Below are positions 11,627 to 20,600 of a stretch of 64,000 nt of DNA, one piece after another (positions within the stretch are counted from its first letter, which is position 1; each line of letters opens with the position of its first letter). Source of the stretch: Amoebidium appalachense (lineage: Eukaryota > Protista > Ichthyosporea); the NCBI GenBank assembly GCA_963693365.1, contig CAVNZM010000014.1, positions 5,084,001 through 5,148,000 of the forward strand. The letters are read 5' to 3'. The translations under genes were made by a program, and so were the position numbers. The notes below the pieces were generated by a model. That model did no database searches, had not been told where the DNA came from, and worked only from the letters and a program-made list of their open reading frames with translations.

Positions 11627-14600
11627 ATGGCCCACCACGGTGATCCCCCGGAATCGTCAATGGTTGAAACTACCGAGGGAATAGAGACACAATGGGGACA
11701 TACAGAACCCGTTCAGAACGGTGCAGAAACGTTGAACGGTTACAGTAACGAGGAACATGAACAAACGGTGGGGGGTGGAGCAGATGAAAACGAGGGAGGA
11801 GAGGAGGAAAGAGAGGAAGAGAATTTGCAGGGTGTTGCGAAATTGAGGTTGGAAGAGGTGGAGGGAGGAGGAATGGAAGAGGAGGGGGTGGAAGGGGAGG
11901 GGAACACGGAGGAAGTTAATAATGGTGAGGGTGAAGGTGGTGATACTAGGGAGGAAAACAAGGAAGGTATGGGAGGTGATGAGTTTGGTGAGGGAGAAAA
12001 CAACGAGGGGGTTAATGATACGAGCGAAGGAGAGGGGGAAACTGCGGAGGGTGAGGCGAAGGGAGGGATGGAGGGTGGGGAGGGGGAGGGGGGGATGAGG
12101 AAGCAGGTGTGGTGGGGGAGATGGAAAGGGAAGGGGGAGGAGGGGAGGGGGAGTGGGAGGTTGAGGGGGAGGGGGAAGTGGAGAAGGAAGAGGGAGAAGG
12201 GGAGGGGGAGGGGGAGGGGGAGGGGGAGGGGGTGGGGGTGGATGCAGTGAGAAGGGAGGAGAGGGCGGCGATGAGAATGAGCATGAGAAAGTCATCACGT
12301 GAATTGGTGAGGAGCAACTCCCAGCAGCACACAAAGGCATACGTGGAGGATCTGGTGCCTGTGACTATAGACAGGTACGTCCGTCCAAGGGCACGTGGGG
12401 GGTGCATGTGGTTGGGGTGCGCTAGCGGTGCACTCGTGTACGTGTATGTATGCACACACAAGCAGAGACGAATTTACGCTCAACACAGGCACATACCATC
12501 ACACATATTTGCTAACCCTCCCAACTCCTCCCACTCTTCTTCCCCCATCCCCCCCCCCCCTGCCCCATCCCCCCCCTCCCACCCCTGCTCGTTCAGAACA
12601 CATACACAAACTACAGCCATGCAAACACGCACGCCCCCGCACACACATACACATATACACATATGCGATCCTCCCCCCCCCCCCCCCCCACACACACACA
12701 CACATACACACACATTCACCCTGAGCACACAACATATACACATGCATGGCCGAGTCAGGATCCGGTCATCTCCCCACCCCCCCCCCCCTGCCCCCCCTCC
12801 CCCACTCTCCACCCCCCCCCCCCCCCTCCCCCCTCCCCCCCTCACCACCACCAGATTCCCTGCCTGCTCCACCCCTTTGCCTCCCCCTCCCCCCCCTCCC
12901 CTTTTTCCCCTCCTCGCCCTCCCATCCTCCCCCCCCCCCCCCCCTCCCCACCCCTCCCCCCCCCCCCCCCACACACACAAACTTTCTCCTGTCCCCTGCA
13001 CGGCCTGTTTGCCTCGTGCATCGAATTAAAACACCTACGCAATGAGCATTGTACGAACAGCACACAAACGGTCCCATCCTCCATCTCTCTCTCCTCTGTT
13101 CTTGTTCTTCTGCCATCTCCTCCCCTTCCCGCTCAACTTCATTCTCCACCTGCCGTCCCCCTCCCCCCCCCCCCCTCCCCGTCACCCTCCTCCCACTGCT
13201 ATTCCTCCCTCCTTAAACTTCTCTCTTCCTGCCCCCCACCCCTCTCCCCCTTTTGCACCCCACTCCTTTCCCCGTGGAGTTCCGGCCCTTGCACTGAAAA
13301 TGTGTTTGCCTCCCCTCCCCCCCCCTCCCCCCCCCTCCCCCCCACCTTGCCTGCATAAGCAACCCTGCTCGTCTCTGATCAAGACGGGTGACCTACCCAT
13401 GTTCAAGTGAAACAGTATCTGAGTTGGGTTTCGTTAACGAGGTGAATGGTCGAAACTCGGGTACTGTGGATGACGTGGGCCCCCCCTGAGGATGGGCTCT
13501 GCTTATTATGCATACTCTTTATGTATGGCTTGCATTCTGCATCGTGTTATCCGTTTGTTCTTGTGTACTTCGTACTTTTTGACGCATTCAAACCCCCCTC
13601 CCCCCACCCTCCTCCCCCGTCCTCCTCTTTCCCTCCTGCCCTACTTCCCCGCATTCTTCCCTGCATCTTCTTCTGCCTCCCCCCACCATGCCCTTCTTTC
13701 GTTGACCCCCCGTCCTCCCCCCTCCCCCGAACAACACACAAACCTCTTCTACCCCTCCCTCCCTCGCCTCCCATACCATGACGGCTTCCGTTCACCCCTC
13801 ACACCCACCATTCACCCTGTGTCCTACAGTTCTATCATCATGTTTTAGGGCTCACCTTTCCCTCCCTACCACCCTCCCCCCTCCCCCTCCTGCCCCTCCT
13901 CCCCCCCCCCCCCCCCCCCCCCCCCCCCCCCCCCCCCCCCAAAAAAAAAAAATATAAAAAATAATAACAGTGAGTGTCATGTGATGTGGATGCCCGGGGG
14001 GGACGAGATTGAGCTACTGGAGGGGGGGGAGGTGGAGGGTGTTGGGCACGTGGACGTGTACAACACACACGTGTGGAGACAGCAGGCAGACAGGCACAGG
14101 CCTATAATTGAGGCCGTGCACCCCGGATACATGGTGTGTACGTGTGGTTGTGTGTGTATGTGTAGGGGGGGGAGGGGGGGGGGGGGGGGGGGGAGAAGGG
14201 GGAGCGGGGAAGGGGGGGGAATGGGGTAAGGAGGGGGAGGGAGGGGAGGGGAGGGGAGGGGGTAAGGGCGACCGTAGGCGACGGTTGGAGCAGGAAAAGG
14301 GGGTGGGGTGGGGTTGGAGGTAGGAGGGGGGGGGGGGGGGGTTGTTACATGTGTGTGAATGGGTGCAAGTCTCTGGATTTGTGTTTTTTTGGGGGGGTAG
14401 GGGGAGGGGGGGGGGGGGGGGAGGGGGGGAAAGGGTTATAGGCACCCCCCCCCCCTTCTCCCCGTGTCTCCTCTCCTCCCCACTCCCCCCCCCCCCCCCC
14501 CCCCCCCCCCCCCCCTTCTCCCTCTAAGACTGGCACCACATGCACCACACATCAGTTCTCTCCCCCCTCCCCCCCTCTTACTATTTGCCCACGCTGCCTT

Positions 14601-17600: not shown

Positions 17601-20600
17601 CTCTTGTGCTCGCTCTCTCTGCTCCCTCCCCCCCTACCCACCACCGTTCTTTCCTCCCCTCCCCTCCCTGCCCCCCTCCACCTCCCCCCCCCCCCCCCCC
17701 CACACATACACACACATACACACATCTAAACACACAAAACTTGGCCCCCGGCTTACCCCCTTCTCCCCCCCCCCCCCCCCCCCCCCCCCCCCCCCCCCCC
17801 CTAAAACACACACACACACACACACACACACACCAACAGAAAAAGTGCGCAACATACGCATGGTAACCGCCAACGAGATACTGAGCCAGCATGCGCTAGA
17901 GCTAGTAGGTGACGGCACGTTTGGGAGCATCTACATGCTGACAGAAAACACGGACCTCGTGTTGAAGGTCTTTAAGGCAGAGTGCACGCCATATGCTAGG
18001 CTTAACGAGGTCGTGTCGTTGAGGTACGAAAAAAAGAAAAACAAAAAGAAAAAGGGAGGGGGGAGGGGGAGGGGGGGGGGAGGGAGAGGGCAAGAAAGAA
18101 AGATAACAGGCAAGGAAAAGATAGACAAGTGCCATGCATCCTCCCCCCCCCGAAAGAAACCACCACCACCAGGATGGGCTTTTTTGTGTTACATGCTTTT
18201 CACTTCTTTTGCTCTTTCCTGCCTGGTGTTTTCAGTCGCTAGTCTATGCACCTTGTACTCTGGCATGCTTCCCCCCCCCCCCCCCCCCCCCCCCCCCTGT
18301 TCTGCCTCAGAATGTCCCTGTCTCTGTGCGTGTCCATGGTTTGCCACGTTCACACACGCACACAACAGACACACACACACAGACACCCTCTCACACGAAC
18401 ACATGCGCACACGCACACACACACACACACACACACACACACACACACACACACACACACACACACACACACACACACACACACACACACACACACACAC
18501 ACACACTCACTCACTCACTCACTCACTCACTCACTCACTCACTCACTCACTCACTCACTCACTCACACCCGCATCCTCCCCCCTTTACTTCCATGCAACC
18601 GGGCATGGTTGCTCTGTGTCGTGCATCTGTAAGCACATACGCGTTTTTTGGTGCACTGCATTAGTTTGCACACACATCTTCACCGTTCTGCTCACCTTGC
18701 TTGCATAAGCAACCCTGCTCGTCTTTGATCAAGACGGGTTGACCCACCCAAGTTCAGTTGATGCTGCTGTCTGAGTTGGAGCGTCGTATATACGCGGGCT
18801 AAGGGGTCGAAACTCAGACGCAATTGATGACTTGGGCCCTCCCTGAGGATGGGCTCTGCTTATGACGCATACTGTGCGCATGGCTGATGTTGCATACTTG
18901 AATGTTTGCCTTTGCATGTGTCCTGCACCATGCTTCTCATCGTGTATGCGTACTTCGTACTGTGTTCCGCATTCAAACCCCCCCCCCCCCCCCCCCTCCC
19001 CTCCCCCCTCCCCTCCCCTCCCCCCCTCCCTTCCCCCCACACGCACACACCCGCAATGCCCGCATCCCCTTCGCCCCCCCCCCTCCCCCCCTACCACACA
19101 CACACACACACACACACGTTCACATCCACTCGTGCCCTCATCCCATACTGAACCTCCTCCCATACTGAATCTATATTTAACCATGTGTTCTATATATAGC
19201 CGTCTGCAGGGTGTCAAGCATATGGCCAAGCTGCTTTCGATCGTTGAGGATGATGCCGGCCTGGGCCTGTACGGTTACATGACCTTCCGGTACAACCCCG
19301 CCCCCCTCTTCCCCCCTCCCCCCCCCCCCCCTCCCCCTCCCCCCCTTCCCCATACACACACACAGGCACACACACACGCACATACAAGCTAACACGGCAT
19401 GTACAGACATGCCAACTCATCACAATGCATTCAGTCCGACCGTCCCATCGTGCACACACGTAGGAAAGAAGGGAGGTCAAGCTGCAAGTTGGAAAACCCC
19501 CCCCCCCAAAAAATAAAATAAAATAAATAATAATAAAAATATATATACTTCTCTCCTCCCTGCACGTTCTATTTCTCACCCCAATCCCCCTCCTCCTGTT
19601 TACACGCTCCAACTCACGACCTCCTTCAAGTTTCTTTCCCACAACCAGCTACCAATGCCTATCTGCTTCCTGCGTATTTCAACTAACAATTATCTCCCCC
19701 CCCCCCCCCCCCCCTCTCCCCCCACCCACCCCCCCACCCTTCCCCCCCCCCCCCCACGCTCCCCCCCAGCTACGAGTATACGCTTTTAGACTACCACCGC
19801 ACCAACCCCCTCCCCCCGTGCCCTCTGCCGTGTGGTGCAGCAACTAGCAGACAGCCTGCGTCTTATGCACGGACACCACGTAGCACATCTTGATCTGTGC
19901 GATAGAAACGTCATGGTCTCACACCCAAGACGTGGGCCCCAGTGGATCCCAGGTTCTTCCCACTCCCCCCTCCCCCCCCCCCCCCCCCCCCCCCCCCCCC
20001 CCTTCCCCTCCCTCCCCTACACCCACACACACATGCAAAGACAAACACACACACCAAAAAAAAAGAAAGAAAGAAAGAAAGAAAGAGAAAAGAATGGAAT
20101 TGGGGAGAGAGAATGAACACACCACACAGACAGCCTTCGTCTTATGCACGGACACCACGTATCGCATCTTGATCTGTGCGATAGAAACATCATGGTTTCA
20201 CACCCAAGACGTGGGCCCCAGTGGATCCCAGGTTCAAATTCCCCCCTTCCCCCCCCCCTCCCCCCCCCTCTTCCTCCTCCTCCTCCGCCATCCCCCCCCC
20301 CCCCCCCCCCCCCCCCCCCCCCCCCCCCCCCCCCCCCCACACACACACACAGACAAAAACACACAAGAAAAGTAAAAGAAAGACAGAATCCAGGACACAA
20401 ACTCACACCCTCAAACACGCCCTAAGACAGCACGAACACCCGTAGACACATCTGCTTCTCTTACGGTCCACGCCACAGTGGCCAAGCCCCCCCCCTCCCC
20501 CCCCCCCCCCCCCTTCCCCCCCGTCCCCCAGGCGCCAACCCCTTTCCACCACCTCCAACGACACCAAGCACATGCACGAGCATGCGCGCACACACAACAG

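Follow-up and report, generated by a model that had tools for sequence, protein, structure and literature searches.

A probable retrozyme-like element with a predicted split-core hammerhead in introns of Amoebidium appalachense

What kind of repeat sits in introns of two different genes, in the sense of its host in every case, with a fold that its copies share? The question is raised by a 64,000-nucleotide (nt) stretch of the ichthyosporean Amoebidium appalachense (hereafter the window; contig CAVNZM010000014.1 of assembly GCA_963693365.1, positions 5,084,001 to 5,148,000). An initial annotation had placed three copies there and read them as a structured RNA under selection: an undescribed intron-hosted noncoding RNA (ncRNA), a ribozyme-like motif, or the cis-element of a non-autonomous retroelement. 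We found the copies at the coordinates and on the strands proposed (A, 2233-2609, minus; B, 13345-13593, plus; C, 18583-18978, plus). A and C are 92% identical over ~400 nt, while B shares 72% identity with them over its whole 249 nt and 81% over the core. We consider it probable that they belong to a retrozyme-type non-autonomous retroelement, with a split-core, kink-turn hammerhead predicted to cut its RNA and a Penelope-type reverse transcriptase that likely pastes it into C-runs. The evidence supports taking the structured RNA, the ribozyme-like motif and the retroelement cis-element as one and the same thing.

All three copies contain a complete hammerhead core (C3 U4 G5 A6 N7 G8 A9, G12 A13 A14, A15.1-U16.1, and H17). 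The blocks of this core run S-G-C, a non-circular order (first the GUU site, then CGAAA, and last CUGAGGA), and they do so solely on the strand that is sense for the host. In copy C, stem III (18769-18776 with 18812-18819) ends in the pair U16.1-A15.1, H17 is U18777, stem I pairs 18778-18781 with 18839-18842, CGAAA occupies 18808-18812, and CUGAGGA (18843-18849) is followed by U. The predicted stems adjoin the core: stem I has 3-4 base pairs (bp), stem III 9-13, and stem II, formed with a strand upstream of the site, 4-5. Stem I carries a compensatory change, A-U in A and C and G-C in B. When C was compared with B, 17 of 17 core positions were identical, against 120 of the 161 other positions (a post hoc comparison). 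Cleavage is predicted to occur after GUU.

A descriptor open to all six block orders, applied to both strands of the window with minima of 3 bp for stem I and 2 bp for stem II, gave three matches. These are exactly the three copies, all S-G-C and all host-sense. The same descriptor matched 1 of 15,000 shuffles of the element and gave five matches in 30 shuffles of the window. A covariance model built from the three copies detected no fourth core in the window. Pattern scans for relatives returned 0 and 97 metagenome loci, 0, at least 120, 1, and at least 123 viral loci, and 11 loci from prokaryote genomes; outside the seed, none of the first 218 scan loci listed resembled the element, the best nhmmer E being 0.04. 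A later set of 134 public loci, chosen beforehand for having the G motif ahead of the C motif, included none, among the matches listed, that completed stems I and III.

The Infernal search of Rfam proposed as a check on the initial annotation assigned no copy to a known family. Nothing in the window reached a gathering score, the segment 13200-19100 gave only low-complexity, microRNA-type noise outside the copies, and copy C produced a single antisense match (E=5.7). Several familiar RNAs were considered and rejected. The classical hammerhead types I, II, and III need the circular order C-G-S, and here the order is S-G-C with no Rfam match; box C/D and H/ACA small nucleolar RNAs (snoRNAs) and the selenocysteine insertion sequence (SECIS) have neither an Rfam match nor their box architecture here. 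Compared by eye, none of HDV-like, twister, pistol, hatchet, or hairpin ribozymes, U3/U4, SECIS, signal recognition particle RNA, or telomerase CR4/5 came into register.

In all three copies, pairing between the bases following CUGAGGA-U and the strand ahead of GAAA stops at two pairs, with a G.G opposition next. A strand upstream of the cleavage site forms four to five pairs, the first of which is the canonical G10.1-C11.1. The predicted stem II duplex is stronger with the upstream than with the downstream strand, at -10.0 versus -5.4 kcal/mol in C and -6.5 versus -2.0 kcal/mol in B. A fifth pair is C-G in the A/C type and U.G or U-A in loose contig ends of the B type. Stem II is therefore likely made by the upstream strand, which would open the core between A9 and G10.1. 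With this assignment all helices are compatible: two further helices, P1 and P2, would form a domain inserted between A9 and G10.1, and the core would be opened at the position of the extra U. We found no hammerhead in the literature described as a non-circular permutation opened between these residues, nor does a helix inserted at A9/G10.1 appear in the accessible text of PMC3088659, PMC6155905, PMC13725137, or PMC10162972. The accessible part of PMC13725137 does mention hammerhead variants "containing additional helices," without detail.

The long hairpin can be read as an extended stem III interrupted by a standard kink-turn. In both subfamilies a 3-nt bulge precedes tandem G.A/A.G pairs with C and NC helices alongside, as the sequence definition of a standard kink-turn requires. 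The pair -1b:-1n is A:U; 3b:3n is A:G in B, and in C it is U:U with 4b:4n G:U. According to excerpts of PMC8191799, A:U, A:G, and G:U at such places favor folding, and the bulge, the tandem sheared G.A pairs, and the favorable flanking pairs are those of Kt-7-type kink-turns described there; the difference from known kink-turns is the placement in stem III of a hammerhead, for which our literature searches found no precedent. The kink-turn lies 13 steps from the core in both subfamilies despite their differing sequences. We infer that it bends stem III back, which would let the upstream and CUGAGGA strands reach the core. In the available portion of their paper (PMC10085705), Eckert et al. leave open by what means stem III, at its far end, comes to the side of stems I and II.

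All the helices named in the initial annotation are present in the three copies, and their covariation is real. Our own structure of 46 pairs gives 138 cells over three copies, of which 133 pair, and four pairs change on both sides (one in stem I, two in stem III, and one in the C helix of the kink-turn). The same pairing score was reached by 8 of 500 shuffles, a fraction that is not a probability because the three sequences are related. As A and C are nearly identical, the covariation amounts in effect to one comparison, A/C type with B type. P1 and P2 are invariant save for one private change in A, and hence show no covariation. Two details were amended: the claim that non-Watson-Crick pairs are G-U only on the host-sense strand was overstated, as that strand has three C.A/A.C oppositions (two private to A, one common to A and C), and the inner CC-CUGA-GG pairing of the third hairpin is probably not real, because the U-to-C change at 18840 covaries with 18780 and not with 18849. 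Folding z-scores (C, -2.36 sense and -3.42 antisense; B, -1.21 sense and -0.29 antisense) pick no strand; the strand is set by the hammerhead core, found on the host-sense strand only.

The layout invites comparison with type-SGC hammerheads (HRIMA-1 and variants; PMC10085705, used here in excerpt), in which S, G, and C follow in that order with CUGAnGA(U)G, CGAAA, and a stem II strand directly after CUGAnGA(U). The element has the same order, CUGAnGA then U, CGAAA, a U-H site, and the pseudoknotted connectivity of stems I and III. It differs in that stem II likely comes from a fourth, upstream strand, contrary to the assumption of that paper that block C is uninterrupted; in the two-helix domain between A9 and G10.1; in a stem III of 22+ bp with a kink-turn; and in its length of 170 nt compared with at most 104. 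The published search pattern has S-G linkers of 0-8 nt, G-C linkers of 0-15 nt (0-44 in the motif), and a stem I of at least 4 bp. Block order and motifs of the element agree with type-SGC; its stem II (where type-SGC has at least three pairs after CUGAnGA(U)), its S-G linker, and the stem I length in B do not. Type-SGC examples are reported there from metatranscriptomes only and from no genome of a known organism, whereas the element stands in eukaryote genomic DNA. For non-circularly permuted hammerheads in general, the same excerpts give metatranscriptomes and metagenomes as sources, with a single bacterial case that is doubtful.

The abundance of the family was assessed from contigs of public sequencing runs aligned to the copies. 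X1 is a DNA run, and X14 and X20 are RNA-type runs, identified as such by spliced contigs; summed contig depth overcounts and is not copy number, and contigs give no expression level, strand, or ends. The stretch occurs in 20 of the 24 runs listed, under five organism codes. Copy C matched 14,050 contigs of X1, where summed depth peaks at 2.4 M, and 9,163 of run X2; copy A matched 12,107 contigs of X1, next to exact single-copy contigs with depths of 22 and 39. Overall, summed depth of the element in X1 is 0.5-2.4 M, compared with 22-39 for the adjoining single-copy contigs, which as a rough reading indicates thousands to tens of thousands of copies. The placement of the copies was confirmed, and the extent first given to the element proved too short: upstream of A, a 50-nt head (summed depth ~0.54 M) and a tail-C-head junction (462,745 at 2660) also belong to the high-copy family. 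Loose contig ends carry on as tail sequence behind 2687, and one RNA-type contig of X20 spans this junction. As the head and the preceding tail fragment both stand at ~0.5 M depth with 7-8 C between them, head-to-tail junctions are common and the A/C-type unit is ~440-450 nt long. The tail of A is 15 nt shorter than that of other copies, a difference that appears in contigs as a 15-nt insertion at 2267. The B-type subfamily has a longer unit, sharing the core and having another head and another tail part (one contig reaches 783 nt). Its share of depth is ~41-43% at two marker sites in X14 and 19-26% in X1, a hint only, contig depth being a poor measure.

The pattern of insertion points to reverse transcription. 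C-runs flank all three copies, the 3' end is fixed before a C-run, and the 5' end varies; depth declines from the 3' toward the 5' end. At copy A, 5 of the 15 contig joints listed (17 in all) attach a truncated copy, its break at 2308, 2346, 2355, 2436, or 2454, to a tail and C-rich sequence. B may be flanked by C-rich target duplications. The GUACUUCGUAC mini-hairpin and the ending in GCAUUCAAAC plus C-run, both noted initially, are present, and the downstream end of A reads GCAUUCA and then a C-run; this conserved tail is likely the site that the reverse transcriptase recognizes or primes on. A fixed 3' start with a ragged 5' stop has the appearance of target-primed reverse transcription, as is established for non-LTR elements (those without long terminal repeats) and Penelope-like elements. 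No open reading frame (ORF) overlapping the element belongs to a coding family, which makes it a noncoding unit. A short interspersed element (SINE) derived from tRNA, 5S, or 7SL was considered and rejected: we found no RNA polymerase III A box and no tRNA-type head in the element, and one B-box-like 9-mer in P2 could arise by chance, with no Rfam match and a tail of C instead of an A-rich one.

Can the sense orientation of all three copies be explained without selection? Sense placement in introns holds for each copy, the intron of A being established by spliced contigs and those of B and C predicted. The orientation was confirmed in this way, but it needs no selection on function, because C-runs, the apparent target, lie mostly on the sense strand of the introns. 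Counted as sense:antisense, runs of at least 8 C stand at 5:0 in the intron of A, 18:6 in 12378-14916, 4:1 in 18000-19197, and 55:9 over the kinase-like gene that hosts B and C, with 15:14 over the whole region of the RING gene that hosts A and 9:13 in another region. The strand bias of C-runs largely explains the sense bias of the copies.

The element resembles metazoan non-LTR retrozymes (PMC7229834; bioRxiv 10.64898/2026.07.22.740005; both represented here by excerpts) in being a noncoding unit that measures a few hundred nt and contains a hammerhead, occurring as monomers and head to tail, with no LTR, primer-binding site, or polypurine tract seen and a Penelope-type partner proposed. Those retrozymes carry a type I hammerhead and are animal, AT-rich, and, in Xenopus, depleted from introns. 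Our element is set apart by a core that is both permuted and split, a GC content of ~50%, C-runs as targets, and an ichthyosporean host, and its RNA circles would be assumed by analogy. It is thus retrozyme-like without a type I hammerhead, and type-SGC-like without a type-SGC stem II.

Closer counterparts of the split layout may exist in animals. Naiad and most Chlamys elements, members of the Penelope-like group, are reported in the accessible text of PMC8557442 to lack canonical hammerheads, apart from eight "half core" cases. The same text describes 5' truncation, partial tandems, non-autonomous head-to-tail derivatives such as MRC1, and, for Chlamys, (C)n targets; 5' truncation, a partial tandem (pseudo-LTR), and a microsatellite target are all seen in our element. 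Read by eye, seven Naiad consensus tails in the excerpted supplement of that paper (Naiad_Obim, Naiad_Ovul, Naiad_Aacu, Naiad_Anas, the entry before Naiad_Aacu, and two further entries) have the order upstream strand, site, GAAA, CUGAnGA. Their stems are complementary and their sequences differ from ours; one tail has a stem II mismatch. In four, nothing separates CUGAUGA from a closing helix that has a hairpin before it, as with P1 and P2, so that only the upstream strand can be stem II there; one tail has CUGAGGA-U, as here. The likeness is known at the level of core motifs and layout, and no coding partner was seen in our window. We would give about even chances that an active four-strand hammerhead, opened inside its core and hinged by a kink-turn, is common to this retroelement and the Naiad retrotransposons of animals. 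Amoebidium is not mentioned in the portions of PMC8557442 available, and such a repeat is not described in those of PMC11244446 or PMC5560861. Our literature searches, which left most subscription papers outside their coverage, found no publication on a hammerhead ribozyme in Ichthyosporea.

Together, head-to-tail and single copies stand in introns in the sense orientation, and the element is present in RNA-type contigs. The complete core, conserved between subfamilies, and the covarying stems support a structured RNA under selection; the S-G-C core on the sense strand supports a ribozyme-like motif, its cleavage being predicted; and abundance, truncation, and head-to-tail copies support the cis-element of a non-autonomous retroelement. 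In the mechanism we propose, the loop of stem III would hold the site and CGAAA strands, stem I would be formed as the CUGAGGA strand returns, and the upstream strand would supply stem II; the kink-turn would bring both strands within reach, and the RNA would be cut after GUU. From a tandem transcript, cutting at two sites would free a monomer, which ligation could close into a circle in the manner of retrozymes (PMC7229834, in excerpt); uncut tandem RNA would do equally well. A trans-acting reverse transcriptase would take the G strand of a genomic (C)n.(G)n run as primer, paired to the C7-8 inside the RNA where two units meet, and would copy over a variable distance, less than one unit for B, C, and tail fragments or more than one for A. 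Priming at a C-run with variable copying would account for the fixed 3' end, the ragged 5' ends, nesting behind older tails, and an orientation taken from the target C strand. A Penelope-like enzyme is reported to start reverse transcription inside its RNA, in that case at sites not homologous to the target (PMC11167929, in excerpt).

Several points weigh against this reading: The descriptor minima were chosen after the copies had been seen. A GUU site is slower than GUC, and with the 3-bp stem I of B it may give slow cleavage. No step in DNA depth marks the predicted site, and one RNA-type contig runs through it. Nested folding favors a state in which the catalytic strands are partly paired elsewhere, 8-11 kcal/mol lower before the pseudoknot stems are counted. 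The covariation rests on one subfamily comparison, in which P1 and P2 never covary. Compared with the 0-8 nt of type-SGC (PMC10085705, in excerpt), the S-G linker here is ~20 nt with a hairpin of its own. No reverse transcriptase was found among the 80 window ORFs scanned, and the partner is inferred. RNA contigs that cross the junction demonstrate no circle, because the tail-C-head junction also stands in the DNA. Finally, the Naiad tails were read by eye in snippets retrieved with chosen motifs, without a census, and several of the seven are close relatives.

How, then, do other explanations fare? If the ribozyme and the mobile family are kept and the partner is instead an ordinary non-LTR retrotransposon, such as a HERO/RLE-type long interspersed element (LINE), the element would be a SINE-like copy of the LINE 3' end. 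The fixed 3' end with its small hairpin, the 5' truncation, and the possible target duplications at B all fit LINE-type target-primed reverse transcription; there is, however, no poly(A) tail, and the frequent, exact head-to-tail junctions with internal C7-8 fit the partial tandems of Penelope-type elements. We regard a LINE partner as unlikely. Less likely still, to our minds, is a plain type-SGC hammerhead that takes stem II from the bases after CUGAGGA-U and uses the upstream strand as an inhibitory off-switch. In its favor, CUGAGGAUG fits CUGAnGAUG, the pattern as published, extra U included; pairing is possible for G18851-C18808 and G18852.U18807, and GGGC/GCUC might form an interaction helix between stems I and II. 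Yet the third pair is G.G in every copy, the duplex is 4.5 kcal/mol weaker than that of the upstream strand, the interaction helix would compete with the C helix of the kink-turn, and several Naiad versions (PMC8557442, excerpted supplement) have no such strand after A9.

We see a similarly slim chance that the hammerhead pattern is a dead or nearly dead relic kept as a protein-binding fold, with spread from uncut tandem or host transcripts. The GUU site, the short stem I, the lack of a depth step, and the RNA contigs through the site would be expected of such a relic, and related relics in the window share both ends of the element without its core. Against it, the subfamilies, while differing at one in four other positions of the core region, agree at every core position, even where no pairing is involved, and 2 of the 15 joints listed at copy C (21 in all) break at 18777 and 18779, at most 1 nt off the predicted site, a weak post hoc hint. 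That leaves a functional intron-hosted ncRNA, snoRNA-like with its kink-turn bound by Snu13 and its sense orientation kept by selection, as the initial annotation had in part proposed. The three intronic, sense copies and the kink-turn agree with it, but Rfam gives no match, the copies in thousands of contigs include truncated and nested ones, A has private pair-breaking changes, and the strand bias of C-runs explains the orientation. Because so very many copies are 5'-truncated, head-to-tail, or nested, we reject it and give it next to no probability. We therefore retain the retrozyme-type element with a Penelope-type partner. Coordinates of its parts are collected in Table 1.

Table 1. Positions in the window of the three copies, their host introns, and the parts of the predicted ribozyme. 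Parts are numbered in copy C unless a copy is named.
Feature	Position	Strand	Remarks
Host intron of copy A	1076..2761	-	GT..AG; RING-finger gene
Copy A	2233..2659	-	Complete A/C-type unit with head of 50 nt (2610-2659), then 5' body, ribozyme core, and tail
Head-to-tail junction upstream of A	2660..2687	-	Last 21 nt of tail, 7-8 C, then head; partial tandem, pseudo-LTR-like
Predicted host intron of copy B	12375..13970	+	GT..AG and frame consistency, sequence only
Copy B	13345..13593	+	B-type subfamily; first base is first base of shared core; C-runs both sides
Kink-turn bulge in B	13406-13408	+	
Predicted host intron of copy C	18024..19199	+	Kinase-like gene; RNA-type contig covers downstream exon
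Copy C	18583..18978	+	A/C-type, 5'-truncated (without 50-nt head); C-runs both sides
P1 closing helix	18705-18711/18857-18863; 18713-18715/18851-18853	+	Domain 18705..18863
P2 hairpin	18717-18739	+	With P1, domain predicted between A9 and G10.1
Upstream stem II strand	18741..18745	+	G10.1 = 18741 (A 2451, B 13390); predicted pseudoknot with 18804-18808
Long hairpin	18747..18836	+	Extended stem III with standard kink-turn
Kink-turn in C	C helix 18747-18756/18828-18836; bulge 18757-18759		G.A 18760/18827; A.G 18761/18826
Block S	18775..18781	+	GUU triplet, then stem I 5' strand; predicted scissile bond 18777/18778 (A 2415/2414, B 13425/13426)
Block G	18804..18819	+	Stem II 3' strand, CGAAA, stem III 3' strand; G12 = 18809 (A 2383, B 13452)
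Block C	18839..18850	+	Stem I 3' strand, CUGAGGA-U; C3 = 18843 (A 2349, B 13486)
Conserved tail	18950..18978	+	4-bp mini-hairpin and fixed 3' end before C-run

The host gene of A lies on the minus strand and has a RING match (we take it to be ARIADNE-like); in RNA-type contigs of two runs its exon 2762-2839 is spliced to one that begins at 1075. The predicted introns holding B and C, both in sense, belong to a plus-strand kinase-like gene. Around A, a 58-bp stretch from the start of the intron (2689-2746) is repeated at 2045-2100 with 84% identity, and both repeats run into C-rich sequence and then a tail fragment; this may be an old local duplication or a long target duplication. The same intron holds a diverged tail-like fragment before a C-run (1973-2030, minus), whose low X1 depth (61-83) places it outside the young family, and a short likeness to the GAAA-block region of B (1480-1500, minus) that may be chance. 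X1 depth rises to ~2,000 at 2864-2900, the edge of the stretch examined, suggesting a further repeat family. Diverged relics at 49530-49737 and 57114-57470 (both plus) begin with the motif that starts the core of B, have a tail-like end before a C-run, and carry no hammerhead core; lying inside a duplicated segment, they are probably one insertion. The point at which A/C- and B-type heads diverge (18695, 2497) coincides with the start of B (13345) and of both relics (49530, 57114), a recurrent module boundary ~80 nt upstream of the predicted cut.

Elsewhere in the window, a tandem segmental duplication (~48400-55200 and 56100-63000) contains two intronless minus-strand genes of the choloylglycine-hydrolase family (PF02275; 52562-53782 and 60420-61604; 87% DNA identity), a mostly bacterial family, and gene transfer is possible. 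An F-box and leucine-rich-repeat gene (43203-45849, minus) precedes a pfkB-family kinase (46865-47863, plus), the protein of which matches an "Ihof" protein, presumably from Ichthyophonus hoferi (a species listed in PMC5560861), at E 1e-60 and 47% identity, the next of 10 matches being at 3e-15; this fits an ichthyosporean host. A 562-codon ORF (30460-32145, minus) has no Pfam match. Local tandem duplications occur at 19848-20075 with 20127-20388, 3981-4371, and 57954-58240, one of which covers an exon end of the kinase-like gene.

With these observations the S-G-C order is found at high copy in the genome of a eukaryote, where block C is likely split. What is at stake is the assumption, made in the accessible text of PMC10085705, that CUGAnGA is inseparable from its stem II strand, and we offer the kink-turn as an answer to the question of stem III reach that Eckert et al. 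left open there. If the reading is true, it would explain why Naiad/Chlamys-type elements "lack" hammerheads, the layout being one that standard descriptors and Rfam miss, and the architecture would be older than animals or horizontally spread. The architecture would then also drive a retrozyme of circular RNA with poly-C runs as its target, retrozyme-like elements would reach into the unicellular holozoans, and many introns would contain self-cleaving motifs on their sense strand.

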